From: an uncultured Candidatus Saccharibacteria bacterium
GTDB lineage: Bacteria; Patescibacteriota; Minisyncoccia; Phycocordibacterales; Phycocordibacteraceae
Reading direction: 5' to 3'
Assembly (NCBI GenBank): GCA_964550425.1
Contig: CAZJZB010000004.1
Coordinates: 1-63,261, forward strand
DNA: 63,261 nucleotides
The position numbers were made by a program, and so were the translations under genes. Below the pieces are notes generated by a model, which had not been told where the DNA came from, did not search any database, and saw nothing but the letters and a program-made list of their open reading frames with translations. Positions 61-60,344 of the stretch are shown in pieces; within the stretch, counting starts at the first letter, position 1, and the number at the start of each line of letters is the position of its first letter.

Positions 61-98
61 GTTCTTATCAACAACCGGTCGGCAGAGATTAGAATATT
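61..98 (+). repeat. ATTCTTAT / CGGTCGG / ATAAGAAT palindromic element, copy A
   Basis: Left arm gttcttatc (61-69), core cggtcgg (76-82), right arm gattagaatatt (87-98). The arms are inverted repeats with 1 mismatch. The same architecture recurs at 704-743, 21258-21297 and 55491-55527. Confidence 0.55.
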
Positions 99-703: not shown

Positions 704-743
704 AATATTCTTATAAATGACGGTCGGAAGAAATAAGAATATT
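704..743 (+). repeat. ATTCTTAT / CGGTCGG / ATAAGAAT palindromic element, copy B
   Basis: Perfect 11-bp inverted arms aatattcttat (704-714) and ataagaatatt (733-743) flank the core cggtcgg (721-727). It sits between the PaaX-like gene and the methyltransferase gene. Confidence 0.65.
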
Positions 744-799: not shown

Positions 800-1336
800 A
801 TGAGCGCTTCATTCAGCAGTCCGCACGAGAACGTGTTGCAGCTAGGCTTGCGCGAGGGAATGAAAGTCGGCGATTTCGGAGCGGGCTCCGGCCACTACGC
901 GCGGGCAGCAGCCGCCGCCGTCGGGCACAGCGGGAGAGTGTATGCGATTGATGTGCAGGAGGATGTACTGAAACATCTGAAGCTAAACACCCGCGCTCAT
1001 CATCAGAGCACCATTGACACGATCTGGGGAGACATCGAGAAGCTGGGCGGCACGCATCTGCGCGACGCATCGCTCGACGCCGTTATACTCGCTAATACGT
1101 TCTTTCAAATTGAGAATCGTTTTGGACTCTTGGGAGAGATGAAGCGCACTCTGAAGTCGGGCGGCAAGACCATGATTGTGGACTGGGCTGGCAGCTACGG
1201 CGGCATGGGGCCCACGCAGGAGCAAGTCGTGTCCGAACATACCGCAGAAGAATTTTTCATCAAAGGCGGTTTTCATAAGGTAAAGTCGTTTCGCGCAGGG
1301 CCGCACCATTACGGCATCATTTTTACCTCTCCATGA
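800..1336 (+). CDS. class I SAM-dependent methyltransferase
   Basis: Contains the SAM-binding motif I, VGDFGAGSGHYA. The ATG at 800 is in frame with the 743 ORF, and the upstream part of that ORF overlaps repeat copy B. The stop overlaps the next start (ATGA). Confidence 0.7.
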   Translation: MSASFSSPHENVLQLGLREGMKVGDFGAGSGHYARAAAAAVGHSGRVYAIDVQEDVLKHLKLNTRAHHQSTIDTIWGDIEKLGGTHLRDASLDAVILANTFFQIENRFGLLGEMKRTLKSGGKTMIVDWAGSYGGMGPTQEQVVSEHTAEEFFIKGGFHKVKSFRAGPHHYGIIFTSP

Positions 1337-2640
1337 AAATCTCACTCTTCCAGGGTATTCTGTTTGGCATATTCGGCCTCAGCGCGCTTGTCGGTCTCTT
1401 CGTTTTCGCGACCTATACGAGTACGGGCGATACGAACACGGTCGGCACGGTCGTCATGTGGGGCACACTGCCCTCGGAAGGCATGCAATCCGCGCTTGCC
1501 GCCACAATGCAAATCGATGAAACCCTCAAGAATGTCTCATATGTGCAAAAAGATCCTGCGACGCTACTCTCGAATGTCGCGACCGCGATAGCCACTGGTG
1601 TCGCACCCGACCTCATCCTCGCTTCGCACGAGGAGCTTCATGCGCTTACGAAATTCATCATGCCGATACCGCAATCAACGCTCTCTACAAACACATTCGT
1701 GAATACGTTTGTTGAAGAGGGACGTATCTTTATGATGCCAGACGGATCCGGTTACTACGGCATACCGTTTCTCGTTGACCCGCTCGTACTCTTTTCAAAT
1801 CGTTCCATTCTCGCGAGCAGCGGCATCGCGAAGCCGCCCGCAACCTGGGAGGCGCTTATAGGTCTTGTGCCGAATGTCGCTATACTGACGCCTTCGCGGC
1901 AGATCACTCGCGGTCTCATCGCGCTCGGCACCTACGATAACGTTCGTGATGCGCGCGGCATACTCTCCGCACTCTTTCTGCAACAGGGAATTCCAATCTC
2001 TTCATATTCGGCGAACGGCGTCCTCGCGGCTGATCTTGGCGAGACGTCTTCTGGCAGCGCGTCGCTCGGGTCGGCAGTGCTCGGTTTCTATACCCAATTC
2101 GCCGATCCTTCAAAGGTTTCATATACCTGGAATACTTCATTGCCTGATTCCGAGCAGATGTTTCTTGCAGGCGATCTTGCGCTCTACCTCGGCTATGCGT
2201 CTCGCGCGCGCTATCTGCAAGAGGCAAATCCAAATCTCAACTTCAGCGTAACGCCTTTGCCGCAAAGCGCGACTACAAAGGAGAAAAGCGCCTACGGCCT
2301 CATCTACGCATTTATGATTCCACGCGGAGCAAAGAACCCTTCTGGCGCCTATCAATCCGCCACACTCCTTACTAACTCTGCCGAGCAATCCATCGCGGCG
2401 GGAGCGACAGGGCTTGCGCCCGCAACGTTGAGTGAACTTGCCACTATTCCTCTCACCGATCCTGTTGCTGCGGTCGCATACGCCGAGGCGCTCTACAGCA
2501 AAGGATGGCTATCCCCAATGTCTAGCGATGTCAACCGTATTTTCTCGGGTATGATTGGGGATGTGATAAGCGGTCGTTCAACGGTCGATGATGTGCTTGG
2601 GAGCGCTGCGCGTTCTTTGAATCCGCTTCTGCAACAATAA
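1333..2640 (+). CDS. membrane-anchored extracellular solute-binding protein-like (SBP family 1-like), no ABC permease or ATPase nearby
   Basis: N-terminal TM helix followed by an SBP-like pattern (VVMWGT, APDLIL, GIPFLVDPLVLFSNRSILASSGIAKPPATWEAL). Confidence 0.6.
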   Translation: MKISLFQGILFGIFGLSALVGLFVFATYTSTGDTNTVGTVVMWGTLPSEGMQSALAATMQIDETLKNVSYVQKDPATLLSNVATAIATGVAPDLILASHEELHALTKFIMPIPQSTLSTNTFVNTFVEEGRIFMMPDGSGYYGIPFLVDPLVLFSNRSILASSGIAKPPATWEALIGLVPNVAILTPSRQITRGLIALGTYDNVRDARGILSALFLQQGIPISSYSANGVLAADLGETSSGSASLGSAVLGFYTQFADPSKVSYTWNTSLPDSEQMFLAGDLALYLGYASRARYLQEANPNLNFSVTPLPQSATTKEKSAYGLIYAFMIPRGAKNPSGAYQSATLLTNSAEQSIAAGATGLAPATLSELATIPLTDPVAAVAYAEALYSKGWLSPMSSDVNRIFSGMIGDVISGRSTVDDVLGSAARSLNPLLQQ

Positions 2641-2642
2641 TC

Positions 2643-3164
2643 ATGGGTCTTTTTTTTACCTTTTCGTTCACCACTTTCGTGTTTGTTATAGTCGCGGCGG
2701 GCGCTGCGCCCGCCGCGCTTGCGCAATCCTGTCCGCCTGGATGCAGCGAATCATTTGCTGGCGGCTGTGTTTTGAGCGCGGATCTTATAAAAGGTGTTAT
2801 AACGGCCTGCCCGACACAGTCCGGGGTCTCTAATCTTCCACAAAAACAAACAGGTGTATCAAACACCAATAATTCTGCCTCTAAAACCACCCTCATCAAC
2901 CCGCTTGGTCCAAAAACGACCACCCTTTCCAAATTCCTCGAAAGTATTCTTGATATCATCATTCGTGTCGGTTCCGTTATCGTTATTCTCATGCTGGTTT
3001 TTGTCGGATTCAAATTCGTTACCGCGCGGGGCGAACCGGGAGAAATCTCCGAAGCGAAGCAGATGCTTCTCTGGACCGTCGTTGGCGCTTTGATACTTCT
3101 TGGCGCCAAGGTCATTGCGGCCGGCATTGAGGCGACCGTAAAGGCGCTCTCCACTGGCGGCTGA
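2643..3164 (+). CDS. T4SS-type (TrbC/VirB2-like) pilin family protein, paralog 1
   Basis: Signal peptide, a Cys-containing extracellular segment, then two TM helices separated by a charged loop (TARGEPGEISEAKQMLLW). It is the first of six tandem paralogs. Confidence 0.6.
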   Translation: MGLFFTFSFTTFVFVIVAAGAAPAALAQSCPPGCSESFAGGCVLSADLIKGVITACPTQSGVSNLPQKQTGVSNTNNSASKTTLINPLGPKTTTLSKFLESILDIIIRVGSVIVILMLVFVGFKFVTARGEPGEISEAKQMLLWTVVGALILLGAKVIAAGIEATVKALSTGG

Positions 3165-3165
3165 T

Positions 3166-3453
3166 ATGAATTTGTCCGGCGGCACGACGTTCAGGGAATG
3201 GGTGGGCGGCGGTACTGCCGGCATCATCGGCCTTCTCAATACCGTCATCGTGCCGACTATCTTCGCCTTCGCCTTTGCAGCCTTTATTTGGGGCGTCGTG
3301 AACTATTTCTTTCTCCATGGAGGCGATGAAGGGAAGCGCGCAGAAGGGCGGCAGTTCGTCCTCTGGGGTATTCTCGGAATGGTAGTGCTCTTCTCGGTGT
3401 GGGGATTCGTGCATATATTGTTATCCACGCTCGGCATCGCGCCTGCGAAATAA
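3166..3453 (+). CDS. pilin-like small 2-TM protein, paralog 2
   Basis: TM1, then the loop GGDEGKRAEGRQFVLWGILG, then TM2 ending FSVWGFV. The start is 2 nt after the previous stop. Confidence 0.6.
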   Translation: MNLSGGTTFREWVGGGTAGIIGLLNTVIVPTIFAFAFAAFIWGVVNYFFLHGGDEGKRAEGRQFVLWGILGMVVLFSVWGFVHILLSTLGIAPAK

Positions 3454-3454
3454 T

Positions 3455-3979
3455 ATGCCATACTCTCCGCATATGCGATCAATTGCCCATACTGCTCTCG
3501 TGTTCATCGCACTTCTCGCACCAGCTCCTACATACGCATTAAGTGACGCATCATATACACTCACAACACCGGGCATTAGCTCTCAATCATCGCAATTTTT
3601 CACGACCGGCGTCTTCGGTATGCCATTTGGCGGCGGATTCGGACTCGGCGGATATAGTAGCGGCTGCGCAAATTCCATCTATTGCATCGCGGGGAACGTT
3701 ATCTACATCATCAATAGCGTGTTGGTGCCGGTACTTTTCGCAATTTCTTTTATCGTATTTCTCTACGGCATCACCCGCGCGTATATTTTTTCCGCAGGCG
3801 ATCCGGAGAAGGTGAAGGAGGGGCATAAGATTATCCTCTGGGGCCTCATCGGGTTCGCCGTGATGGTATCCATATGGGGGCTGGTGAATGTCGTCTCCAA
3901 TACTTTCGGCCTTCAGGGCTCGTACGCGCCGTTTCTGCCGATGTCGCCTTCTCCCTTTTTAGGGCCGGCGCCTCGATAA
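3455..3979 (+). CDS. pilin-like protein, paralog 3 (longer N-terminal extracellular part)
   Basis: Signal peptide and a Gly-rich segment, followed by the shared module VLVPVLFAISFIVFLYG...GDPEKVKEGHKIILWGLIGFAVMVSIWGLVN. Confidence 0.6.
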   Translation: MPYSPHMRSIAHTALVFIALLAPAPTYALSDASYTLTTPGISSQSSQFFTTGVFGMPFGGGFGLGGYSSGCANSIYCIAGNVIYIINSVLVPVLFAISFIVFLYGITRAYIFSAGDPEKVKEGHKIILWGLIGFAVMVSIWGLVNVVSNTFGLQGSYAPFLPMSPSPFLGPAPR

Positions 3980-3991
3980 TTATAGAAACAC

Positions 3992-4279
3992 ATGGATTTG
4001 ACAAAACTTAAACAATATTCCGGAGAAATTATCGGTTTCATCAATTCTTTTCTCGTTCCGGCTTTGATGGCGATAGCGTTCATCACCTTCTTATATGGTG
4101 TCTATAAATATTTTATTCTTGGCGCTGCGAGCGATACCGAGCGTGCAGAAGGGCGGCAATTTGTCCTGTGGGGCATTATCGGTCTTGTTGTTATCTTCTC
4201 TGTCTGGGGGCTGGTGTTCCTTGTTAGCGGCACGCTCTATCTCGTGCCGAGAGGTGCGCCCTCGTATCCGCTATTGTGA
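3992..4279 (+). CDS. pilin-like small 2-TM protein, paralog 4
   Basis: Shared module LVPALMAIAFITFLYG...SDTERAEGRQFVLWGIIGLVVIFSVWGLV. Confidence 0.6.
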   Translation: MDLTKLKQYSGEIIGFINSFLVPALMAIAFITFLYGVYKYFILGAASDTERAEGRQFVLWGIIGLVVIFSVWGLVFLVSGTLYLVPRGAPSYPLL

Positions 4280-4367
4280 TTCTCCGATATCCCCACGGGG
4301 TGAGAGGGTATAGTTGACTCTGTTTCCAGGGACGTTACAATTACCCCATTATCCACTTATCAACACT

Positions 4368-4751
4368 ATGAAAAAAGCCCTCGCCCTCGTTTCAGGAACA
4401 TTTGCCGCACTCGCTCTGCCGCTCGTCTCTTTCGCACAAACAGTTAGTAATCTCTCGAGCGCCGGTACTTTGATTATCAATACCATTAATAATGTCCTCG
4501 TCCCTGTTCTTTTTGCCATTGCTTTCATCGTGTTCCTGTGGGGCGCGTTCCAGACCTTCATCGTTGGCGCCAACGACGAGGAAGTGAAGACACATGGTAA
4601 GAATCTCATGCTCTGGGGCCTCATCGGCTTTTTCGTCATGGTCTCTCTCTGGGGTCTCGTGAACATTCTTACCGGCACTGTTAGCTTTGGGACCAGTTCT
4701 GGACCATCGAGCGGCCTTCCAAAGGCAGGTGTCCAAGTAGGTGGTTTTTAA
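4368..4751 (+). CDS. pilin-like protein, paralog 5
   Basis: The ATG at 4368 gives the signal peptide MKKALALVSGTFAALALPLVSFA. Shared module VLVPVLFAIAFIVFLWG...NDEEVKTHGKNLMLWGLIGFFVMVSLWGLVN. Confidence 0.6.
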   Translation: MKKALALVSGTFAALALPLVSFAQTVSNLSSAGTLIINTINNVLVPVLFAIAFIVFLWGAFQTFIVGANDEEVKTHGKNLMLWGLIGFFVMVSLWGLVNILTGTVSFGTSSGPSSGLPKAGVQVGGF

Positions 4752-5021
4752 ATGCCCGTTCTCAACGAGTTTCTCCAGAAAGTCGTCGTGGAGGTCGTCA
4801 ATCCGATTATCCTGCTGCTCGTCGCAGGAGCGTTTATTGTGTTCTTGTGGGGCGTATTTGAGTTTATCCGACAGGCGGGAGATGAAGGGAAGCGCGAGGA
4901 GGGCAAGAGCGCCATTCTCTATGGCCTCATAGGCCTCGTCATCATCTTCGGTGCTTACGGCATTATCAATCTAGCTCTCGGGACCTTCGGTATCCCGACA
5001 ATTCAGAAAATTTCGAAGTGA
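4752..5021 (+). CDS. pilin-like small 2-TM protein, paralog 6
   Basis: Shared module NPIILLLVAGAFIVFLWG...GDEGKREEGKSAILYGLIGLVIIFGAYGIIN. The start directly follows the previous stop. Confidence 0.6.
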   Translation: MPVLNEFLQKVVVEVVNPIILLLVAGAFIVFLWGVFEFIRQAGDEGKREEGKSAILYGLIGLVIIFGAYGIINLALGTFGIPTIQKISK

Positions 5022-9484: not shown

Positions 9485-10663
9485 ATGTTTTGGAAGCGGA
9501 GAATATATCTTGATAATGCTGCAGGCGTGATGCCTAACCCGTCATCGCCGCATGAAGAGGGAAGGCGGGCTAAGAACATGTTGGAAGACGCGCGGACGGT
9601 TATCGCGCGCCTCGTCGAGGTACAACCGGACGATGTTATTTTCACGAGCGGCGCGACCGAGAGTAACGCGCTCGCCATTCTTGGGCATGTGCGAGCTCTT
9701 CGTGCGGCAGGAACGAAAGATATTCATATGTTATATCTGCCGAGCGCGCATGCATCTATCGTTGAAAATGCAAAAATGCTTTCTGCGGAAGGTGTAAAGG
9801 TAGATATTCTTCCAGTGAAGGATTATCGCGTTGATATAGAAGAGCTTAAGAAGATGCTTACGCCTGAGACAGTGCTCGTTTCCATGGAGGCGGTGTGCGG
9901 TGAGACGGGAGTCGTGTGGAACACACGCGAGGTCGCGGGGATGTTGAAAAAATTTAGCACGGGCGCACTGAAAAAAGGAAGCGCTCAGGCCGCTAGGCCG
10001 ATTCAACATCCTTTTTTCAGTGCGCCCGTGCTGCATGTTGACGCGAGCCAGGCACCTCTGACCGAGAAAATAACGCGCGCGCATTTCGCCGCGGATATGC
10101 TCACACTTGATGCGGCAAAGGTCTCCACTGCTCGCGGCATCGGCGCGTTTATTGCACACCGCACAATTCCAATCGTTCCTCTCTACGCGGGCGGCGGCCA
10201 AGAACGCGGATTACGTTCAGGAAGCGAGGCGCCGGAACTCGCGAGGAGTTTTGCGGCGGCGGTTGCCGCCGCTGCATCCGGGCGCGAGAAGTTCCGTGCT
10301 TCTGCCGAGCGTGATCGTGCGAACCTTATCAGCATGATTGTTGCCGGTATTCCGAATGTGCAAGTGCAAGAGGGCCGATTTCAGGCACCCCACATTCTCA
10401 ATCTTTCGTTTCCGAACCGTGACACCGATTATCTCGTCGCGCTCCTTGATGAAGCGGGTTTCGCCGTCTCGTCGCGGAGCGCCTGCGAGACGGATTCGCA
10501 GGTGGGTTCGCGGGCCGTTCTGGTCCTGACCGGCGACCCGGAGCGCACCCGTGCGACACTGCGTATATCCTGGGGCCCCAATGTTTCTCCGCATTCGTTT
10601 ACTCGCTTTGCCCGTGCGCTTCAAGAGACCGTTGCGTTTATTGACAGTGACGGCCGAAGGTAG
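9485..10663 (+). CDS. class V aminotransferase / cysteine desulfurase-like (NifS/IscS-like)
   Basis: Motifs IYLDNAAG and FTSGATESNALAI, with the overall class V layout. It carries the in-frame hairpin insertion at 9961-10027. Confidence 0.7.
   Translation: MFWKRRIYLDNAAGVMPNPSSPHEEGRRAKNMLEDARTVIARLVEVQPDDVIFTSGATESNALAILGHVRALRAAGTKDIHMLYLPSAHASIVENAKMLSAEGVKVDILPVKDYRVDIEELKKMLTPETVLVSMEAVCGETGVVWNTREVAGMLKKFSTGALKKGSAQAARPIQHPFFSAPVLHVDASQAPLTEKITRAHFAADMLTLDAAKVSTARGIGAFIAHRTIPIVPLYAGGGQERGLRSGSEAPELARSFAAAVAAAASGREKFRASAERDRANLISMIVAGIPNVQVQEGRFQAPHILNLSFPNRDTDYLVALLDEAGFAVSSRSACETDSQVGSRAVLVLTGDPERTRATLRISWGPNVSPHSFTRFARALQETVAFIDSDGRR
9961..10027 (+). repeat. in-frame hairpin element, copy 1 (19-bp perfect stem, conserved 29-nt loop)
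   Basis: gggcgcactgaaaaaagga (9961-9979) is the exact reverse complement of tccttttttcagtgcgccc (10009-10027). The loop agcgctcaggccgctaggccgattcaaca is identical to 28806-28834. Confidence 0.8.
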
Positions 10664-15702: not shown

Positions 15703-16575
15703 TTAGGACATCGGATGTCCTAACTTGCGCAGCCAGGCTTTTTGGCGTCTGGCATACTGCCAAAGTTTCGCCGAGAGGGCCGGTAGGAGTACTTCGCTGC
15801 GCTCAGTACCTCCGGCGCGTAGATACTCTCCGATTATGCGATACTCGAGCCCAAATTCGTTGAGCCGTATATCGCCGACCATTTCTCGAATAGTGCGTAC
15901 TTCATCAATAAGTCCGCGCGCAAACGCGCTTTCCAGCCGCGTGTCTATTCTCGCGCGCAACTCTTCTTTTGGCGGGTCAATCACTATCCATTCAACAAGG
16001 TATCCACAACTTGTGCCTATAGGCACATCTTTTGGATACCTTGATGGGACGGTGCCGAGTGAGGCGATTATTTCCAAGGCGCGGATGAGTCGGCGGCGGT
16101 TTTTAGGATCCAATTCTGCCCCTCGGCGCGCGTCCGCCAAGCGGACACGCGCATAGAGTTCGTTCGTGGAAAGCGTTTCAAGTTCTTCGCGAAGCAGGGG
16201 ATTTGCATCAATACCCATCGGCAGGCCGTGAAGAAGTGCATGGAAATAGAAATGCGTTCCTCCGACAAGGATGGGAAGTTTTCCGCGATCCGAAATATCT
16301 TCAATAAGGCGTGTCGCATCCGCCACGAAGTCACCTGCAGAATACGCCTCATGCGGGTCGCGGATATCGATAAGATGATGGGGAACGCCACACATCTCCT
16401 CGGCGGTTATTTTTTCTGTGCCAATATCAAGTTCGTGGTATACTTGTCGCGAATCAACCGAAATAATCTCGCCACCACGCACAAGTGCTTCTTCAATTGC
16501 CCGCGAGGATTTGCCCGAAGCAGTTGGGCCTACTACGCATACAATTTGCCTTGCCATTGCGCACGATGGTATCAT
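15703..16575 (-). CDS. miaA: tRNA dimethylallyltransferase
   Basis: Motifs VVGPTASGKSS, ISVDSRQVYHELDIGTEKIT, VPHHLIDI and PILVGGTHFY. The start may instead be the second Met, at 16554 (codon 16552-16554). Confidence 0.85.
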   Translation of the reverse strand: MIPSCAMARQIVCVVGPTASGKSSRAIEEALVRGGEIISVDSRQVYHELDIGTEKITAEEMCGVPHHLIDIRDPHEAYSAGDFVADATRLIEDISDRGKLPILVGGTHFYFHALLHGLPMGIDANPLLREELETLSTNELYARVRLADARRGAELDPKNRRRLIRALEIIASLGTVPSRYPKDVPIGTSCGYLVEWIVIDPPKEELRARIDTRLESAFARGLIDEVRTIREMVGDIRLNEFGLEYRIIGEYLRAGGTERSEVLLPALSAKLWQYARRQKAWLRKLGHPMS

Positions 16576-19602: not shown

Positions 19603-21192
19603 TTACTTCTCTTTTCTCGAGTGTCGCCGCTTTCGCTCTGACGCTTTTGTCGGATCGCTCATGCCGAGTGTTGCGCGGATGTGACGTCTGGCGAGCGCAG
19701 TCCGTGCAATCTCGAGCCATTTGACCGATGGGTGCGCAGCATCGCGCCGCACTATCTCAACGACCTCGCCATTACCAAGTACGGTATCAAAAGAGACAAG
19801 TTTTCCGTTGACCTTTGCCCCTTGAAGATGATCTCCAAGGTCGCTATGTATCGCGTAGGCAAAATCAATCGGCGTTGATTCCGCCGGCAAGTCAATAACG
19901 TCACCTTTGGGGGTAAACACAAACACTCGATGCGAAAAGAAATCTTCTCTAAGTCCGGCAACAAATTCTTTAGAGCCGGCGACTTCCGTATGCGCCTCGG
20001 CAAGCTCGGCAAGCCATGGAGGCACTTTGGCTACACTTTTCACTCCCTCCTCCTTTTTCGAAACCTTCATGAGCGATGGGATGAGCGAGCGGACCCACGA
20101 GAAAGAAAGCGATGAAAATCTGCTTTTTTGAACCTCCTTACCGAAATTTTCAATCCCTTTCCCCAGTTGCTTATATGACATATGCGACGCGATGCCGAAT
20201 TGTGCGCGACGATGCATTTCTTCTGTGCGAATTTGAATTTCGACGATGCCCGCCTCCGGCGTTACGACCGTCGTATGGAGCGATTGATACCCATTCGGCT
20301 TGGGGAAGGCGATATAGTCCTTGAATTCTCCCGGCAGCGGCTTATAGAGCGCATGTACCATGCCGAGTGTCGCGTAACAATCTTCGATAGTCGGTACGAT
20401 GAGGCGCAGTGCGGCAATGTCATGAATGAGGTTGATATCATCACGCTTTCTTTTGAGCTTCTGGTGCATGCTCCACAACCCTTTCATGCGAATATCGGTG
20501 CGAAACATCGTCAGGCCTTTTTTTGCGAGTTCATTCTCGAGTTCTTTTTGTACTTTGGCGAGCCCGTCTTCGGTCTCTTCCGTCTTCAATTTGCGCACTT
20601 CGGCGGTATGGTGCGCGGCATCAGAATCGACAAAGGGAAATGCGAGATCTTCGAGATCGCGTTTCAAGGTGCCCATTCCGAGACGGTCGGCGATAGGGGC
20701 GTAAATCTCCAGCGTCTCGAGCGCGATACGGCTGCGTTTATGCTCCGGCACATGCTTTAAGGTCTGCATGTTGTGGTAGCGGTCAGCGAGCTTCACGATG
20801 AGCACGCGTATGTCGCTTGCCGTTGCGACGAGAAGTCGTCGAAGCGATTCTGCATGGCGCTCGGCACCGCGATATTTATGTTTGCCAAGCTTCGTCACGC
20901 CATCAACGATGAAAAGTAATTCGTTCCCGAATTCTTTTTCAATCTCTTCGCGCGAGACACGCGCGTCTTCGACGGCATCATGCAAGAGACCGGCGGCAAT
21001 CGTGGTCGCATCCATGCCGTATTCAGCGAGAATTTTTGCGGTCGCCGCCGCATGGATGAAATAGGGCTCACCCGAGTAGCGGGTTTGACCCTCGTGCGCC
21101 TTCTGGGAAAACTCGTATGCCTTCTCGACAAATGCGATGTCCTCGGTCGAGGCATCCGACATTTCGCCAATAATCTCCTTAACGGGCGTCAT
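19603..21192 (-). CDS. bifunctional (p)ppGpp synthetase/hydrolase, RelA/SpoT homolog without ACT domain
   Basis: HD domain (HDAVED), synthetase motif DYIAFPKPNGYQSLHTTV, and TGS domain VFVFTPKGDVIDLP. Confidence 0.85.
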   Translation of the reverse strand: MTPVKEIIGEMSDASTEDIAFVEKAYEFSQKAHEGQTRYSGEPYFIHAAATAKILAEYGMDATTIAAGLLHDAVEDARVSREEIEKEFGNELLFIVDGVTKLGKHKYRGAERHAESLRRLLVATASDIRVLIVKLADRYHNMQTLKHVPEHKRSRIALETLEIYAPIADRLGMGTLKRDLEDLAFPFVDSDAAHHTAEVRKLKTEETEDGLAKVQKELENELAKKGLTMFRTDIRMKGLWSMHQKLKRKRDDINLIHDIAALRLIVPTIEDCYATLGMVHALYKPLPGEFKDYIAFPKPNGYQSLHTTVVTPEAGIVEIQIRTEEMHRRAQFGIASHMSYKQLGKGIENFGKEVQKSRFSSLSFSWVRSLIPSLMKVSKKEEGVKSVAKVPPWLAELAEAHTEVAGSKEFVAGLREDFFSHRVFVFTPKGDVIDLPAESTPIDFAYAIHSDLGDHLQGAKVNGKLVSFDTVLGNGEVVEIVRRDAAHPSVKWLEIARTALARRHIRATLGMSDPTKASERKRRHSRKEK

Positions 21193-21257: not shown

Positions 21258-21297
21258 ATATTCTTATTATTGCCGACCGGATGTAGATAAGAATGTT
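21258..21297 (-). repeat. ATTCTTAT / CGGTCGG / ATAAGAAT palindromic element, copy C (core inverted)
   Basis: Arms atattcttat (21258-21267) and ataagaatgtt (21287-21297). The core ccgaccg (21273-21279) is the reverse complement of cggtcgg. Confidence 0.6.
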
Positions 21298-21398: not shown

Positions 21399-21707
21399 AT
21401 GTTGAATGATCGTGGCTTTACATTGGTTGAGCTGGTAACGGTAATCATTCTTGTTTTCTTCGTAGTTTTTGGTGTCATCGGGGCATTCCTCATGGGGAAC
21501 CAATGGTTCACGGAGGAGGGGATTCTACGAAAGATACGGCTGAATCACCCCGATATTAGTCGGGCTATAGAGGTTCTAGATTCAGAGCGGAATTTTTTTG
21601 CCCCCTCAGTTATTACTGTGGAGGAGAATGGCGGTCAGCGGAAAAAGTTCTGTTTTGACTCGAACATCTTCTTCAGCTACACGGAAACCAAATGCAACGA
21701 TGAGTAA
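21399..21707 (+). CDS. type IV pilin / pseudopilin-like protein with prepilin N-terminal methylation motif
   Basis: N-terminus MLNDRGFTLVELVTVIILVFF, which is the G|FTLVE prepilin peptidase site plus a hydrophobic helix. Confidence 0.75.
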   Translation: MLNDRGFTLVELVTVIILVFFVVFGVIGAFLMGNQWFTEEGILRKIRLNHPDISRAIEVLDSERNFFAPSVITVEENGGQRKKFCFDSNIFFSYTETKCNDE

Positions 21708-28623: not shown

Positions 28624-29711
28624 TGTCATTCTGGCAGAAACTCAATAAGCCATTTATTGTGATGGCGCCAATGAAAGACGTGACCGATGTCGCTTTCCGA
28701 CAACTCGTCGCGAAGAGTGGCGCCCCCGACGTATTCTGGACCGAATTCGTTTCGGCTGACGGTCTCTACTACACGCAAGAAATCGCCGGCAAGTCAGAAA
28801 AATCAAGCGCTCAGGCCGCTAGGCCGATTCAACATGATTTTTCTGACTCACCGGCTCATAAAAGCAACAATCCGCTCGTGCGCGATCTGGCGTTCATGGA
28901 GGAACAGCGGCCAATAGTCGCGCAAATTTTTTCAAGCAAGCCGGAGATGATTGCGTATGCGACGAAACTTGTCGCAGGTCTCGGGTTTGACGGCGTTGAT
29001 ATCAACATGGGCTGTCCGGACCGAACGGTTGAGAAGCAGGGCGCTGGCGCCGCGATGATTAAAAATCCGAAGCTCGCTCAAGAGATCATTCGCACCGCCA
29101 AACAAGCGGCTCTCGAAGCGGCAATACCAAATCCGTCCTATAGGACGGATTTGGTACTGTCACGATTTCCGATTCCTGTGTCGGTAAAAACACGCATTGG
29201 CTACAACACTGAATCGCTCGACGAGTGGCTCACGGCGCTTCTGGAAGCAGGCCCCGCCGCCATCACGCTCCATCTGCGCACGCGCAAGGACATGTCGCTC
29301 GTGTCGGCGGATTGGGAACAAATGAAAAAGGCCGTTGAGATTCGCAATCGTGTGAATCCGGACGTGCTCCTCATCGGCAATGGCGACGTGCAGGACCTCG
29401 CTGATGCGCGTGCGAAGGCGATCGAATCAGGATGCGACGGCGTAATGCTTGGTCGCGCGATGTTCGGGAATCCATGGGTTTTCGCTGGCCGAAAAAGCGA
29501 AGACACGCCGCTCGCTGAGAAGCTCGCGGCGCTTATTGAGCTCGCGCATTCCTTTGAGAAAATCTCGCCGCCCAAGAACTTCTCAATACTGAAAAAGCAC
29601 ATCAAGGCATTCGTCACCGGCTTCAATGGTGCCGCCGAACTCCGCGCGCTCCTGATGCAGGCCGAGAATGCATTCGAGCTAGAGCGCATTCTGCGCGAGA
29701 ATCCAGTATAA
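28623..29711 (+). CDS. tRNA-dihydrouridine synthase
   Basis: Motifs MAPMKDVTDVAFRQL, GVDINMGCP and the Dus TIM-barrel pattern. It carries the in-frame hairpin insertion at 28793-28847. Confidence 0.8.
   Translation: MSFWQKLNKPFIVMAPMKDVTDVAFRQLVAKSGAPDVFWTEFVSADGLYYTQEIAGKSEKSSAQAARPIQHDFSDSPAHKSNNPLVRDLAFMEEQRPIVAQIFSSKPEMIAYATKLVAGLGFDGVDINMGCPDRTVEKQGAGAAMIKNPKLAQEIIRTAKQAALEAAIPNPSYRTDLVLSRFPIPVSVKTRIGYNTESLDEWLTALLEAGPAAITLHLRTRKDMSLVSADWEQMKKAVEIRNRVNPDVLLIGNGDVQDLADARAKAIESGCDGVMLGRAMFGNPWVFAGRKSEDTPLAEKLAALIELAHSFEKISPPKNFSILKKHIKAFVTGFNGAAELRALLMQAENAFELERILRENPV
28793..28847 (+). repeat. in-frame hairpin element, copy 2 (13-bp stem, same 29-nt loop)
   Basis: Stem gtcagaaaaatca (28793-28805) / tgatttttctgac (28835-28847). 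The loop at 28806-28834 is identical to 9980-10008. Confidence 0.8.
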
Positions 29712-52891: not shown

Positions 52892-54121
52892 ATGAGTGCG
52901 ATTGATTTTAAAATAGAGAAGCGCGCGGCGCGAAGCGCCGCGCGTGCGGGCGTACTCGCTACGTCTCACGGCGATATTCACACACCCGCTTTTGCGCCGG
53001 TGGGTACCAAAGCAAATGTAAAAGGCATTCTTCCCGAACAATTGAAGCGGCTCGGCGCCGAAGTCGTACTTGCGAACACCTACCATCTCTATCTTCAACC
53101 GGGCGAGAAAATCGTGCATGGGGCCGGCTGGCTCGGAACATTCATGGGCTGGGATGGTCCCACCATGACCGATTCGGGAGGTTTCCAGGTCTTCTCGCTT
53201 GGTGCCGCGTTCGGAAAGACCATCTCAAAGTTCGTTAAAGAGGACGCTCCCGAAGTCGAGTCGGTTGCCGTGTATGACGAAAATGTTGCAAGTCAACATG
53301 GGCAACTCGCCATTATTGATGACGAGGGTGTTTCGTTTACCTCGCACCTTGATGGCTCGCTCCACCGCTTCACTCCCGAGCGTTCGGTGGAGATCCAGCA
53401 TGCGCTTGGCGCGGATATTTTCTTTGCGTTTGATGAATGCACTTCGCCGACAGCCGCGTATGAGTATCAGCGGGAGGCGATGGAGCGCACGCACCGCTGG
53501 GCGGCGCGTTCCCTTACGGCGCATCGGCAGAATATAGACGCGAACAAGCGACAAGCATTGTTCGGCATCGTGCAGGGAGGTCGGCACGAGGACCTGCGCA
53601 GGGAATCAGCGCGCGAGATTTCCTCGCTCGGTTTTGACGGCATCGGCATCGGCGGTTCTTTCTCTAAGGAGGATATGCGCGGCGCGCTTACCGCCGCGGT
53701 AACTGAGCTTCCCGAAGAGTTGCCACGGCATTTTCTCGGCATCGGCGAGCCGTGTGACATTCTGGAAGGCATCGCGAACGGCATGGATCTCTTTGACTGC
53801 GTCGCCGCAACCCGGCTCGGCCGCCATGGTTCCATCTACACAAAGCATGGTCTCATTCACTTAAAGAATGAAAAATATCGCACCGACTTCACCTCACTTG
53901 AGGAACATGTGGACTTACGAAGTCCACATTTCACACGGGCGTATGTGGCGCATCTTTTGCGTTCAGGGGAAATGCTTGGGGCCGTCATCGCCTCCATGCA
54001 CAATGTTGGCTTCATTCTGAACCTCGTCTCCGGCGCGCGGCAGGCCATCCTCGATGGACGATTTGACGAATATCGTGCAGATTTCATTCGCAATTACTCC
54101 AATACCAACTCTGTCCTATAG
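52892..54121 (+). CDS. tgt: tRNA-guanine transglycosylase (queuine tRNA-ribosyltransferase)
   Basis: Motifs TPAFAPVGTKANVKG, TMTDSGGFQVFSL and FAFDECT. Confidence 0.85.
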   Translation: MSAIDFKIEKRAARSAARAGVLATSHGDIHTPAFAPVGTKANVKGILPEQLKRLGAEVVLANTYHLYLQPGEKIVHGAGWLGTFMGWDGPTMTDSGGFQVFSLGAAFGKTISKFVKEDAPEVESVAVYDENVASQHGQLAIIDDEGVSFTSHLDGSLHRFTPERSVEIQHALGADIFFAFDECTSPTAAYEYQREAMERTHRWAARSLTAHRQNIDANKRQALFGIVQGGRHEDLRRESAREISSLGFDGIGIGGSFSKEDMRGALTAAVTELPEELPRHFLGIGEPCDILEGIANGMDLFDCVAATRLGRHGSIYTKHGLIHLKNEKYRTDFTSLEEHVDLRSPHFTRAYVAHLLRSGEMLGAVIASMHNVGFILNLVSGARQAILDGRFDEYRADFIRNYSNTNSVL

Positions 54122-54186
54122 GACGAAATTGGTATTTTGAATGCGGTATGTTCAATTATCCTATACACTCCCCTCACACGCGCATC

Positions 54187-56286
54187 ATGACCAACTTTAA
54201 ACTCCACACGCCGTGGGCGCCTGCGGGCGATCAACCGAAGGCCATCAAGGCGCTTGCGCAGGGCCTTGAGCGCGGATTGCGGCATCAAACCCTTTTTGGC
54301 GTGACCGGAAGCGGGAAGACCTTTACCGTAGCGAATGTCATAGCTTCGCATGACAAACCGACGCTTGTGCTCGCGCATAATAAGACGCTTGCGGCGCAGC
54401 TCGCGCAAGAATATCGGGAATTTTTTCCCGAGAACGCGGTGCACTATTTCGTTTCCTACTACGATTACTATCAGCCGGAAGCGTATATCGCGCACTCGGA
54501 TACGTATATTGAGAAGGAAGCGATGATAAATGCCGAGATAGACCGTCTGCGGCACGCCGCGACACAAGCGCTTCTCACAAGGAAAGACGTCATCATCGTC
54601 GCATCGGTCTCCGCCATCTACGGCCTCGGCTCGCCAGAGGAATACGAGAAGGTGCATGTGAAGATCGAAAAAGGCGGTGTTGAAAATCGCGCGGCTTTGA
54701 TACGCAAACTCGTCAATATCTATTTTGAACGCACGAATGCCGACCTTAATCCCGGGCAGTTGCGCGCCATCGGAAACTCTCTTGAATTCATGCCGGTCAA
54801 CGAGCGCGCGATCTATCGCGTTACCTTTGACGGCGACGATATTGCGCATATTGATCAGCTTGATCCGATTTCGCGCGCAAAGATAAGAGAACCGAAATCG
54901 GTTTTCGTTTTTCCGGCGAAACACTTCATCACGAGCAAGGATGAGCGCGAACGCGCGATTGAAGATATCAAGCTGGAACTTGAAGAACAGCTTGCGAAGT
55001 TCAAGCGCGAGGAGAAACCCTTGGAAGCCGAACGGCTGAAGCGCCGCACGCTCCATGACCTTGCACTTATCCGCGAGCTCGGCTACACAAGTGGTATTGA
55101 GAATTATTCCCGCCATTTCGACGGACGGAAATCAGGGCAACCGCCGCACACACTCCTGTCCTATTTTCCCCATAAGAAAGACGGTTCAGCGGACTTTCTC
55201 ACGGTCATTGATGAATCACACGTTACCGTCCCGCAGATAGGCGGCATGTATGCGGGCGACAAGTCGCGCAAGGACGTGCTGGTTGCATACGGCTTTCGTC
55301 TTCCTTCGGCGCGCGATAATCGCCCGCTCCGCTTTGAAGAGTTTGAGGAACGCATTGGACAAGTATTGTATACGAGCGCGACACCAGGGCCGTACGAACG
55401 CAAGCATTCCGAACAGATAGTGGAACAGGTCATCCGCCCAACCGGCCTCATTGACCCAGAGCTTACCACTCGTCCCGTTTCCGAAGGGGCGTTCTTATCT
55501 TTAACGGTCGGAAATAATAAGAATATTGAATCGCAGGGATACCGGGGGCAGATTGTAGATTTTATCAGTGAGGCAGAGATGGTCATCAAACGCAGCGGTC
55601 GCGCGCTTGCAACAACGCTCACGAAGCAGATGGCAGAAGATCTTTCTTCATTTTTGCGTGAAAAGGGGATTAAAGCCGAATATCTTCATTCGGATGTAAA
55701 AACAATAGACCGCATCGATATCCTTACCAATTTCCGTAAAGGCATATTCGATATTCTGGTCGGCGTAAATCTATTGCGCGAAGGACTCGATCTGCCGGAA
55801 GTTGAGCTTATTGGAATATTGGATGCCGACAAAGAAGGATTCCTCCGAAGCGAAACATCACTCATTCAAACCATCGGCCGTGCGGCGCGTAACGTGCTCG
55901 GACGCGTCATTCTCTATGCCGATGTCATGACCGGTTCACTCGAAAGAGCTATCGGCGAGACGAATCGCCGTCGCTCTCTCCAGCTCGCGTATAACGAGAA
56001 GCATGGCATCACTCCGCAAACAATCAGAAAAGAAATTCATGACATCGCCGCATCGATGCGCACGGAACATCAACGGACCATTGATGAACTTCTCGTGCTT
56101 GATACGCTTGCGTACAGGGAAGATCCAAAATCGTTTATTAAACGGAAAAGAGAAGAGATGGAAGAGGCGGTAGAAAAACTCGATTTCGAAACCGCCGCGC
56201 TCATCCGTGATGAGATATACAAATTGGAAGGCACCGGCCCGAAGGCCCGTAAGCCCCGCGCTCGCAAACCGCTTTCAGGCGCATAG
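54187..56286 (+). CDS. uvrB: excinuclease ABC subunit B
   Basis: Motifs GDQPKAI, GVTGSGKTFT, DESHVT and a C-terminal UVR domain. It contains palindromic element copy D in frame. Confidence 0.9.
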   Translation: MTNFKLHTPWAPAGDQPKAIKALAQGLERGLRHQTLFGVTGSGKTFTVANVIASHDKPTLVLAHNKTLAAQLAQEYREFFPENAVHYFVSYYDYYQPEAYIAHSDTYIEKEAMINAEIDRLRHAATQALLTRKDVIIVASVSAIYGLGSPEEYEKVHVKIEKGGVENRAALIRKLVNIYFERTNADLNPGQLRAIGNSLEFMPVNERAIYRVTFDGDDIAHIDQLDPISRAKIREPKSVFVFPAKHFITSKDERERAIEDIKLELEEQLAKFKREEKPLEAERLKRRTLHDLALIRELGYTSGIENYSRHFDGRKSGQPPHTLLSYFPHKKDGSADFLTVIDESHVTVPQIGGMYAGDKSRKDVLVAYGFRLPSARDNRPLRFEEFEERIGQVLYTSATPGPYERKHSEQIVEQVIRPTGLIDPELTTRPVSEGAFLSLTVGNNKNIESQGYRGQIVDFISEAEMVIKRSGRALATTLTKQMAEDLSSFLREKGIKAEYLHSDVKTIDRIDILTNFRKGIFDILVGVNLLREGLDLPEVELIGILDADKEGFLRSETSLIQTIGRAARNVLGRVILYADVMTGSLERAIGETNRRRSLQLAYNEKHGITPQTIRKEIHDIAASMRTEHQRTIDELLVLDTLAYREDPKSFIKRKREEMEEAVEKLDFETAALIRDEIYKLEGTGPKARKPRARKPLSGA
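55491..55527 (+). repeat. ATTCTTAT / CGGTCGG / ATAAGAAT palindromic element, copy D, inside the uvrB coding sequence
   Basis: Arms gttcttat (55491-55498) and ataagaatatt (55517-55527) with core cggtcgg (55505-55511). It is translated as FLSLTVGNNKNIE. Confidence 0.65.
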
Positions 56287-59116: not shown

Positions 59117-60344
59117 TCTGCCGGAGGTGCCGGGCGTGTATCTGTTCAAACAGGGGCGGAACGTATTGTATGTCGGCAAAGCGACGAATCTGCGCGACCG
59201 CGTACGCTCTTATTTTGACGATGATCTGATAGCGACTCGGGGGCCGCGCGTGGTGGATATGGTGACAAAAGCCGATCGGATAGTCCATGAGCCGACACCG
59301 ACCGTGCTCGAAGCGCTCGTGCGCGAAGCGGCGCTCATCAAGAAATATCATCCGCCTGCGAACGCGGAGGGGAAAGACGACAGAACGTTCCTCTATGCAA
59401 TCATCACGGAAGAAGAAATCCAGCGAGTGCTCGTCGTGCGCGGTAAAGACCTTGATTTCAAGGCGAAACGTATAAGTGGTGGCCAAAAAATAAAAGCGTC
59501 CTACGGCCCATTTCCTTCCGGGGCTCAGTTACGCGAGGGTTTGCGGCTCATACGGCGCATCTTTCCATTTTTTGATACCCCCAAACCGATCGGGACGAGG
59601 AGCAAACATCAGGCGGCAAAGATAGAATTCAATACACAGATCAAGCAGTATCCACGGATATTTTCAGTAAAGGAATATGGCCGCACGATACGCCGCATTA
59701 TGCTTTTTCTCAGCGGCCGCGGGAAGGAATTGCGCGCAATGCTTGAGAAGGAGATGCGGCAGGCAGCCACAGAAGAACGTTTCGAGGATGCGTCGCAAGC
59801 GCGTCGGGAACTGTTCGCGCTCGACCATATTCAGGACGTCTCGCTTATCAAGGACGAAAACCGGTATCCCAATAATAACGCTATAGCAGGAAATAGTGGA
59901 TATCGGATAGAGGCCTATGACACCGCGCATCTCTCGGGCACCAATGCTATTGGCGTGATGACCGTTCTAGTCGGCAGTGCTCCGCATAAAAATGAATATC
60001 GGACGTTTCGTATCCGCGGTATGAAGAAAAATGACGACATCGCTTCGTTGAAAGAAATTCTCTCACGACGACTAAACCACCGAGAGTGGCCGTTGCCGAA
60101 AATAGTCGTTGTGGATGGCGGCACGACGCATAAAAAGGTCGCAGAGAGCGTGCTCACAGTGGCAGGTATACACATCCCCGTTGTCGCGGTAGTGAAGGAT
60201 GAGCGGCACCGTCCGCGCGAAGTCATCGGCGCGCTGCGCGCCGGCATCACCGAAGCGGACGCTGTGTTAGCAAACAGTGAAGCGCATCGTTTTTCACTGT
60301 CACGGCACCGGATTGCTCGCTCAAAAAGTTTACGGGCAAAATAG
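59088..60344 (+). CDS. uvrC: excinuclease ABC subunit C, short form (GIY-YIG, UVR and endonuclease domains; no C-terminal HhH2)
   Basis: GIY-YIG motif PGVYLFKQGRNVLYVGKATNLRDRVRSYF, UVR segment EERFEDASQARREL, and RIEAYDTAHL. It overlaps the uvrA end by 29 nt. Confidence 0.8.
   Translation: MQKNDLQKYNLPEVPGVYLFKQGRNVLYVGKATNLRDRVRSYFDDDLIATRGPRVVDMVTKADRIVHEPTPTVLEALVREAALIKKYHPPANAEGKDDRTFLYAIITEEEIQRVLVVRGKDLDFKAKRISGGQKIKASYGPFPSGAQLREGLRLIRRIFPFFDTPKPIGTRSKHQAAKIEFNTQIKQYPRIFSVKEYGRTIRRIMLFLSGRGKELRAMLEKEMRQAATEERFEDASQARRELFALDHIQDVSLIKDENRYPNNNAIAGNSGYRIEAYDTAHLSGTNAIGVMTVLVGSAPHKNEYRTFRIRGMKKNDDIASLKEILSRRLNHREWPLPKIVVVDGGTTHKKVAESVLTVAGIHIPVVAVVKDERHRPREVIGALRAGITEADAVLANSEAHRFSLSRHRIARSKSLRAK

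Follow-up and report, generated by a model that had tools for sequence, protein, structure and literature searches.

How does a palindrome of some 40 bp come to lie beside promoters and also, in frame, inside a DNA repair gene, and what might recognize it there? The question is raised by a 63,261-nt stretch of DNA (contig CAZJZB010000004.1 of assembly GCA_964550425.1; hereafter the window) from an uncultured Candidatus Saccharibacteria bacterium, a member of the Patescibacteria or candidate phyla radiation (CPR). An earlier reading of the letters alone (the sequence-only reading) had recognized four copies of the element in the window, three of them intergenic and one within uvrB (54187–56286, + strand). 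Two of the intergenic copies bracket a gene for a PaaX-family protein of 193 aa (117–698, + strand), and on balance we consider it somewhat probable that this protein recognizes the element as its cognate site on duplex DNA and that the uvrB copy arrived by insertion. The evidence lies in the four copies themselves, in the same bracketing throughout a family of related loci and in the arms of the palindrome, which vary from lineage to lineage and which the copies inside genes share with the copies beside the PaaX-like gene of the same genome.

The element and its copy inside uvrB

Searching the window with the pattern TTCTTAT-N4-8-CGGTCGG-N4-8-ATAAGAAT gives exact matches at 708–740 (+), 21260–21293 (−), and 55492–55524 (+), and a fourth copy at 62–95 (+), reading ATTAGAAT, appears once one mismatch per block is permitted, so that the earlier count of four holds. 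None of 100 dinucleotide-preserving shuffles of the window matches the pattern, and none of the remaining isolated half-sites in the window forms a full element. A genome-wide pattern search had also been suggested, and when the exact pattern was run against 596 Gb of GTDB species representatives it was found in nine stretches only, eight of them in three metagenome-assembled genomes (MAGs) of Patescibacteria (REEB49, CAYGGK01, and JAQVIY01), with at most six exact copies per genome. The sequence-only reading had allowed that four copies might be no more than chance would give, which neither the shuffles nor this rarity bears out. The consensus of the window copies with their flanks is (A)ATATTCTTAT(C)-N5-7-CGGTCG-N5-7-(G)ATAAGAATAT(T), a mirror-symmetric element of 36–40 bp with arms (ATATTCTTAT and ATAAGAATAT) of about 10–11 bp. 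The plan of arm, core, and arm is thus as first described, but the spacers, originally read as 5–6 and 5 nt, are of 6–7 and 5–6 nt and the arms reach further out than had been seen. The spacers are not complementary to each other, and when the four copies are folded as single strands their energies are only −1.5 to −5.1 kcal/mol, which for three of the four is no different from shuffled sequence. No Rfam family matches the element, tRNAs being the sole matches in that search.

All four copies in the window share one arm type. Copy 1 (58–98, +; GTTCTTATCaacaacCGGTCGgcagaGATTAGAATATT) ends about 20 nt 5' of the start codon of the PaaX-like gene, contains the motif TATCAACA that is typical for copies in this upstream position and holds a promoter-like match, TCAACA-16-TAGAAT, at 68–95. 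Copy 2 (704–743, +; AATATTCTTATaaatgaCGGTCGgaagaaATAAGAATATT) begins 5 nt past the stop codon of the same gene and lies ahead of a G+C-rich, terminator-like hairpin followed by a T run (760–784, +), which separates it from a methyltransferase gene starting at 800. Copy 3 (21258–21297, −) is solo and occupies the divergent intergenic gap between a relA/spoT-like gene (19603–21192, −), toward which its TATCTACA side points, and a small pilin-like open reading frame (ORF; 21399–21707, +). The earlier description of the element as one found at promoters therefore suits copy 1 and possibly copy 3, but not copy 2, which sits between a stop codon and a terminator-like hairpin.

Copy 4 (55489–55528, +; GCGTTCTTATCtttaaCGGTCGgaaatAATAAGAATATT, with translation AFLSLTVGNNKNI) is the in-frame copy that had been noticed within uvrB. 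The uvrB ORF opens at 54148, homologues start at M14 (54187, the probable start), and in this frame the copy reads FLSLTVGNNKNI. It forms the middle part of a 63-nt (21-codon) insertion at 55480–55542 (+), as judged by alignment to solved UvrB structures (9GY7, 2FDC, and 3UWX), and the 21 extra residues, SEGAFLSLTVGNNKNIESQGY, are absent from every solved UvrB, in agreement with the 20 or so that had been estimated against the canonical protein. The closest CPR alleles that have no insert are shorter by 15 residues here. The alignments place the insertion where Bacillus caldotenax UvrB has T427 next to K428, in a loop that follows the RPT strand and precedes the KGQIDD helix that opens domain 3; in the window protein the loop runs from an RPV strand to the (K/R)GQI helix. 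This placement rests on the sequence alignment to solved structures, since the AlphaFold2 (AF2) model, built with 24 close homologues, has a mean predicted local distance difference test score (pLDDT) of 37. The position is better described as the loop opening helicase domain 2 (UvrB domain 3) than as lying between the helicase domains. No promoter-like match was found on the sense strand overlapping copy 4. By these alignments copy 4 has been inserted in frame into uvrB, at a place where the protein tolerates it.

That the loop tolerates insertions, as had been supposed, is clear from the 120 closest UvrB proteins (85–90% identical), 55 of which carry no insert and read R-G/A-V-S-E-T-G-x-Y-K-G-Q-I at this point, while the other 65 have 6–21 extra residues at one shared place, belonging to many unrelated sequence families. 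Going by the names of the closest UvrB relatives, the window would come from a CPR bacterium of Kaiserbacteria/Paceibacteria type. We examined the DNA of nine uvrB alleles (related loci are referred to by L numbers), and each insert is a palindrome, with L100 empty. Inserts centred on CGGTCG occur in the window, L101, L010, and L094, and those of L095–L099 are four quite different hairpins with no common sequence, several hot-spot hairpins being very stable (−42 to −55 kcal/mol over the folded uvrB stretch). If the alleles are ranked by how alike the rest of the protein is, those without an insert and those of differing insert families are intermixed among UvrB proteins that are 93–96% identical, which indicates fast turnover at the site. 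The insert in uvrB of L096 (11342–11382), a 41-nt perfect hairpin (GACCTCGGAGGTCCTTCATCAGATGAAGGACCTCCGAGGTC) in frame there, recurs with 93% identity in the uvrB–uvrA spacer of L095 (3403–3443). The window and L101 inserts have equal length and frame in UvrB proteins that are 90% identical, and compensatory changes in three successive arm pairs set them apart, TTCTTAT/ATAAGAA versus CTCACTAT/ATAGTGAG, the encoded peptide changing along with them; the second arm type also flanks PaaX-like genes in L028–30 and L042. The uvrB site is, in sum, a hot spot for many different palindromes, which the sequence-only reading had overlooked. No target-site duplication was seen at the uvrB copy or at the other copies, and a TCCGAAG repeat flanking the L101 insert, considered as such a duplication, is not general and so is not established as one. 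Several of the UvrB insert families begin with AE(P/S/R)M and have P(T/S)SD at their centre. In L097 a serine recombinase gene lies 5.6 kb downstream of uvrB, with no known link to the sites.

A bracketed PaaX-like gene and its family of sites

The 193-aa product of the gene between copies 1 and 2 matches Pfam PaaX_M (E = 1.4e-18), which in the PaaX repressor is the middle, Cas2-like domain, and no other Pfam family, and in NCBIfam it aligns to positions 38–137 of the 279 of PaaX, with a weak partial match to Cas2. Its AF2 model (pLDDT 70) is predicted to have a winged helix followed by a beta-alpha-beta-beta-alpha-beta fold, for which the best Foldseek match in the PDB is E. coli PaaX (8A39, E = 1.8e-4), and further matches are Rv0674, MarR-type winged helices, and Cas2 proteins. 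The PaaX C-terminal domain was not detected (no PaaX_C match in Pfam), and the protein ends at residue 193. A Cas2-type motif, F-D-(V/I)-P-E...Q-D-S-V-W, is invariant in the family, its aspartate included. The sequence-only reading had suggested looking for a transposase, for a gene like those of REP-associated tyrosine transposases (RAYTs, where REP stands for repetitive extragenic palindromic) or for another candidate mobiliser; no RAYT or transposase is linked to the element, and the gene that it does bracket, which that reading had missed, is of the PaaX_M/Cas2-like family. Annotation of anti-phage defence genes returned weak Cas2 matches to the protein and nothing else, no relatives were found in the viral contigs searched, and no paa genes lie near the bracketed gene. 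Residues 1–45 (nt 117–260) comprise an invariant basic N-terminus, KRRKKQN, and then a 20-residue helix rich in Ala, Val, Leu, and Gly that, as modelled by AF2 at low confidence, may anchor the protein in a membrane or take part in its dimer.

A profile scan of metagenome contigs with the PaaX-like protein yielded 80 loci at 46–82% identity, and in nearly all of them a palindrome lies on either side of the gene; in L003, L008, and L012/L013 the gene is bracketed as it is in the window. At a strict threshold, applied to 66–68 distinct related loci with a site finder that permits a 1-nt spacer offset (in many sites the two spacers differ by 1 nt), a site is found in 51/68 upstream flanks, in 54/67 downstream flanks, and on both sides in 46/66 cases, and in none of the shuffled flanks. 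Most of the flanks that fail do so by a small margin or because their centre is a variant one. From the end of the right arm of the upstream copy to the ATG the median distance is 17 nt, and in distant lineages the arm overlaps the ATG; the downstream copy begins a median of 5.5 nt 3' of the stop codon. The centres of 116 sites are CGGTCG (55), CGACCG (52), CGGCCG (8), and CGATCG (1), that is, CG-RY-CG. The arms, with a median of 11 nt, vary between lineages and yet remain complementary, and they are identical on either side of a given gene, examples across the family being ATATTCTTAT, AATCTCACTAT, ATCTACCTAT, TATCCGCAA, ATATCAAA, and CACATCAATA. The predicted recognition helix varies with them, YRMKSVAGRL occurring with C(A/C/T)CTAT and YRAK(T/S)AAGRL with T(T/C)CTTAT, and contigs L082, L035, L055, and L067 each carry paralogues with differing arms. 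In 39 of 48 informative pairs the GT/AC centre points the same way in both flanks. Relative to the gene, however, its orientation flips between close relatives such as L086 and L091, so it defines no fixed polarity, and the earlier claim that a non-palindromic core orients the element is weak.

The bracketed gene is syntenic, following gyrA and a 157-aa ORF and preceding genes for a methyltransferase and a solute-binding protein; in the other common context a paralogue follows RNase J. In the window (1333–5021) the methyltransferase gene, the solute-binding-protein gene, and a run of small pilin-like genes lie on the 3' side, an order that is kept in L003, L012, and L013, and the pilin-like assignment is by synteny with L012, in which six genes belong to Pfam T4SS_pilin. 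The paralogue with ATATCAAA-type arms and its two sites directly follow RNase J in many genomes. In L069 (600–2520) the region past RNase J holds a solo site, an unrelated ORF of 270 aa, a duplicate of about 70 bp of the upstream context, and the bracketed gene, and in CAYGGK01 (L004) the place after RNase J is taken by a solo site of the TTCTTAT type (499–539). Long perfect palindromes in L035 (2374–2412) and L064 (15820–15858), with 17-nt arms abutting a CGGTCG/CGACCG centre and no recognized PaaX-like gene nearby, may be sites of more divergent paralogues.

A motif, TATC[AC]ACA, is conserved in the upstream copies and missing from the downstream ones. Extended to TTATC[AC]ACA beside the left arm (62–75 in the window; upstream copies of L015–L045), it is similar to a −35 hexamer and also equals, or comes near to, TTATCCACA, the consensus of the E. 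coli DnaA box. In syntenic loci gyrA lies two genes upstream of the PaaX-like gene. A single box together with a cumulative GC skew that is flat over 0–24 kb, rising after, is no evidence of a replication origin, and this candidate was rejected.

Outside the flanks of its gene the palindrome is scarce. About 0.95 Mb of related DNA contains 110 CG-RY-CG palindromes, of which 92 belong to gene flanks; the other 18 are solo, and nine of these lie inside long ORFs. Other solo contexts are a divergent promoter region (copy 3), a position 46 nt 5' of a dihydrofolate reductase-like gene (L001), one after ftsH (L007), and the space between convergent genes (L004 and L005). None of the genes that flank solo sites with the same arms in the three GTDB genomes was found within the window. 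In-frame copies occur in three proteins, UvrB, TsaD, and UvrC. The UvrC inserts of L095, L097, and L099 lie directly ahead of the RIEAYD motif. The TsaD copy of L006 reads ILMNRRPSKDKNI. Of 120 TsaD homologues, 15 have this type of element, four have a palindrome of another type, and 101 have none; most of the carriers' nearest neighbours are empty. The element is read in TsaD in another frame than in uvrB, and 11 of 13 residues of the TsaD insert are kept between proteins that are 73% identical.

The key result is that the copies inside genes follow the arm type of their own genome, with one counter-example (considered below). On contig Ga0376277_0000251 the PaaX flanks (L012) read AATATCCTTATC..CGGTCG..GATAAGGATATT and the in-frame TsaD copy (L102, 10853–10893) reads AATATCCTTATgaaccgaCGACCGtcgcaagATAAGGATATT, with arms AATATCCTTAT...ATAAGGATATT that are identical to those of the flanks and with 10 of 14 spacer bases in common. 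The TsaD copy of JAQVIY01, which is homologous to this one, has the arms ATATTCTTAT/ATAAGAATAT.

The window holds further in-frame palindromes, in dus, miaA, an aminotransferase gene, tgt, and uvrC, and the uvrB copy is accordingly one case of a general habit of this genome and the only one for which a protein partner can be identified. Another family of palindromes, with the centre GTCCTATAGGAC and arms AATACCAA, is found at 54101–54136 and 29122–29159; the former spans the stop codon of tgt, with TAG in its centre, just 5' of uvrB, and encodes the C-terminal residues of Tgt, and the latter is in frame in dus (AIPNPSYRTDLVL). The UvrC proteins of L094 and L101 have related inserts centred on CCTATAGG, as the UvrB alleles that read 'PIGQNK' probably do. 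Long in-frame palindromes in a class-V aminotransferase gene (9949–10039) and in dus (28785–28855) have a near-identical centre of 29–30 nt, AGCGCTCAGGCCGCTAGGCCGATTCAACA, translated as SAQAARPIQH, between stems of 21–31 bp that differ, so that here too a conserved centre goes with private arms. The miaA palindrome (15993–16046, 54 nt) has a GCCTATAGGC centre and AAGGTATCCA arms (PSRYPKDVPIGTSCGYLVE). Both uvrC (59861–59906) and tgt (53909–53927) have their own hot spots for in-frame palindromes; the uvrC site has a GCTATAGC centre in the window versus CGGTCG/CGACCG centres in L095, L097, and L099, and the tgt palindrome, GTGGACTTACGAAGTCCAC, has an arm in common with the uvrB insert of L097.

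A proposed binding site and its rivals

We now put forward a hypothetical mechanism for the element as the cognate site of the protein that it brackets. The PaaX-like protein would most likely bind as a symmetric dimer, built from a winged helix and a Cas2-fold dimerisation domain, in which the two winged helices read the lineage-variable outer arms of 10–11 bp and a conserved part of the dimer reads the constant CG-RY-CG, for which the basic N-terminus, invariant in the family, and the Cas2-fold dimer at the dyad axis are candidates. The weak single-strand folding and the non-complementary spacers make the symmetry fit a dimer on duplex DNA rather than a hairpin. Most plausibly the two bracketing copies would serve autoregulation, as the upstream copy overlaps promoter-like signals of the gene, and both the promoter-like match and the TATC[AC]ACA motif in that copy fit autorepression; the downstream copy, hugging the stop codon, could allow looping between the two sites. 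Solo sites, that of uvrB included, would be further binding sites gained by insertion. In uvrB the site would have entered a surface loop opening helicase domain 2, one that tolerates and keeps exchanging short palindromes, and it would be translated as some 15–21 harmless extra residues. Since the uvrB copy keeps the arm type of its own genome, it is probably a live binding site rather than a dead scar, and if bound it might act as a roadblock for the tgt-uvrB-uvrA-uvrC transcription unit, as an architectural site, or without any effect.

Several observations weigh against this mechanism. The statistics of co-variation between arm and protein ignore phylogeny. Solo sites between convergent genes, after ftsH (L007), or inside uvrB, tsaD, and uvrC are ill-suited to an operator, and the in-gene copies are scattered among insert-free UvrB and TsaD neighbours, which suggests repeated gain and loss rather than a conserved regulon. 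The centre is non-palindromic, GT/AC, in 92% of the sites (GC and AT being tolerated), which is unexpected for a purely symmetric dimer, and unrelated palindromes that have no CG-RY-CG core occupy the same position in uvrB. The counter-example mentioned above is the uvrB copy of Ga0376277_0000251, with arms (GTTCGTTA) unlike those of the PaaX flanks on that contig; this copy may be a decayed relic or the site of an unseen paralogue.

Some of the same facts suit a selfish system akin to REP/RAYT, in which the Cas2-fold/winged-helix protein would be a nuclease or mobiliser and the solo copies would be products of transposition or conversion with no host function. We regard this as unlikely, if deserving of serious attention. 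A syntenic gene bracketed by its own palindrome in lineage-specific variants is just the plan of RAYT and REP, several paralogue/palindrome pairs share a contig, and some solo copies lie between convergent genes; yet the copy number is very low, with 18 solo sites to 92 flanks and no more than a handful of exact copies in any genome. Similarly, the in-gene copies are polymorphic and phylogenetically scattered while keeping one position and frame, the TsaD copy resembles the flank copies of its own genome even in its spacers, and many further in-frame palindromes are tolerated by these genomes, but target-site duplications were not found at the copies, and the conservation of the TsaD insert between proteins of 73% identity suggests constraint, not neutral decay. 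The invariant Cas2-type motif with its aspartate would suit an enzyme, whereas the closest structural relative is a repressor with a Cas2-like dimerisation domain, and we know of no nuclease activity of PaaX_M domains. A shade more doubtful is the bolder proposal that the PaaX_M proteins of Patescibacteria are protein-guided mini-elements, each paralogue cutting, copying, or homogenizing its own palindrome into loops of uvrB, uvrC, and tsaD and into intergenic gaps. If true, this would be a non-HUH analogue of RAYT/REP with translated repeats; an in-frame operator network co-evolving with its regulator would be equally new.

Site-specific recombination, with the PaaX-like gene as a cassette between two directly oriented lox- or att-like sites and the solo sites as empty landing pads, we hold to be improbable. 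The asymmetric GT/AC centre (107 of 116 sites) and the direct orientation of most flank pairs are what it would predict, as are the L069 arrangement of solo site and 270-aa ORF and the solo site of L004 where other genomes have a bracketed paralogue. However, phylogeny confounds the orientation counts, neither in the window nor in most loci does a tyrosine or serine recombinase adjoin the sites, the synteny of the bracketed gene is strong, and the L069 duplication runs about 50 nt past the palindrome, which site-specific exchange would not be expected to produce. More improbable again is that the element works as a nucleic-acid hairpin, whether as terminator, attenuator, or signal for mRNA processing or stability, with the uvrB hot spot selecting hairpin potential. 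The uvrB hot-spot inserts in nine genomes are all palindromic, several of them very stable, and copy 2 has a 3' untranslated position, but the stems of the element are A+T-rich and of 7–11 bp around loops of 17–20 nt, its conserved centre would fall in the loop and is nevertheless dyad-symmetric, no Rfam family matches it, and a hairpin function was rejected on the weak folding energies, which are mostly no better than those of shuffles. There is also the simplest explanation, namely chance or convergence at the protein level, by which an ordinary lineage-specific UvrB loop happens to resemble an intergenic motif; the shortness of the motif is all that speaks for it, and it is effectively refuted already by the shuffles, by the nine stretches in 596 Gb, by the compensatory changes of the arms at the DNA level between homologous inserts with differing peptides and by the use of another frame in TsaD.

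If the binding-site mechanism is confirmed, a DNA binding site of a rare kind would have entered genes by insertion, would be translated within essential proteins and would track the changing specificity of its protein. Lineage-specific inserts are common in CPR proteins, and for some of them this offers a concrete mechanism; here the short hypervariable inserts in uvrB, uvrC, tsaD, tgt, dus, and miaA are palindromic DNA and not protein adaptations, which matters for alignment and annotation. The more than 60 distinct pairs of protein and site, with a fixed centre and variable arms, provide material for decoding the recognition code of the winged helix, and they raise the question of a Cas2-fold domain outside CRISPR that acts on specific DNA sites. 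Our literature searches returned no description of in-frame palindromes in CPR or of repeat-bracketed PaaX/Cas2-like proteins, and nothing specific on PaaX structure or operators.

Comparison with known systems

The element fails the defining features of the Rickettsia palindromic elements (RPEs), of REP/RAYT, and of PaaX alike, while having something in common with each. RPEs, reportedly described by Ogata and colleagues in 2000, are said to be selfish palindromic repeats that lie in frame in protein-coding genes. As here, the repeats are short palindromes of a reduced genome, lying in intergenic DNA and also, in frame, within housekeeping genes, at positions that the protein tolerates, and their presence or absence varies between relatives. 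They are, however, about 100–150 bp long and belong to Rickettsia, and by its size of 36–40 bp and its host in the Patescibacteria the element is set apart from RPE-1 to RPE-8; it differs also in its very low copy number, its constant 6-bp centre and lineage-specific arms, and in bracketing and co-varying with the gene for a DNA-binding protein. To our knowledge no such protein partner is known for RPEs. These elements are mentioned in passages of PMC10969869 and PMC1779305.

With REP and REPIN sequences and their RAYTs, the element shares the plan of a single syntenic gene bracketed by its own palindrome, in a variant of the lineage's own, with solo copies elsewhere. A RAYT, however, is a Y1 HUH transposase (Pfam PF01797, Y1_Tnp), whereas the gene bracketed here encodes a PaaX_M/Cas2-fold protein. 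REP palindromes have a conserved GTAG/CTAC at their foot, which the arms ATATTCTTAT and ATAAGAATAT are without, and they number tens to hundreds of extragenic copies per genome, in contrast to the handful of copies here, which form poor hairpins. A RAYT-like Y1 transposase gene (HUH motif HFHLL) does occur in the relative L101 (3516–4175), between uvrB and uvrA, with GTAGCAAGGGCTACCCTTGCTAC, a GTAG-type palindrome, on both flanks and a duplicated uvrB 3' end adjoining, and a tblastn search of the window with this transposase gave nothing. Because a true RAYT with GTAG palindromes is thus separately present in a relative, the RAYT system and that of the element are distinct. The inverted arms also recall miniature inverted-repeat transposable elements, but the copies are without target-site duplication and no transposase in the window shares their ends; in form, including the GT/AC centre, the element is like lox, dif, and att sites, but no recombinase adjoins it in the window.

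The operators of E. coli PaaX consist of widely spaced inverted half-sites. The element resembles them in its dyad symmetry and in half-sites that lie about three helical turns apart, the protein resembles PaaX in its predicted winged helix and Cas2-like middle domain (8A39 being the best fold match), and, as in PaaX, one site, the upstream copy, overlaps promoter-like signals of the gene that encodes the protein. PaaX has about 305–316 aa, in contrast to the 193-aa protein, which is without the C-terminal effector domain and has no paa genes nearby, and the element has, unlike the PaaX operator, an extra conserved centre and sites both on either side of the gene and in frame inside genes. Chromosomal systems of protein and site, with palindromic sites that are often intragenic, are also represented by ParB/parS, Noc and its binding sites (NBS), and the replication terminator protein RTP with its Ter sites, of Bacillus subtilis. 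Their proteins are unrelated to PaaX and their sites are embedded in pre-existing coding sequence, in contrast to the putative sites described here, which are added as insertions; what the element has in common with them is that a chromosome has from a few to some tens of sites with dyad symmetry, of which some lie beside the gene of the protein and some inside genes.

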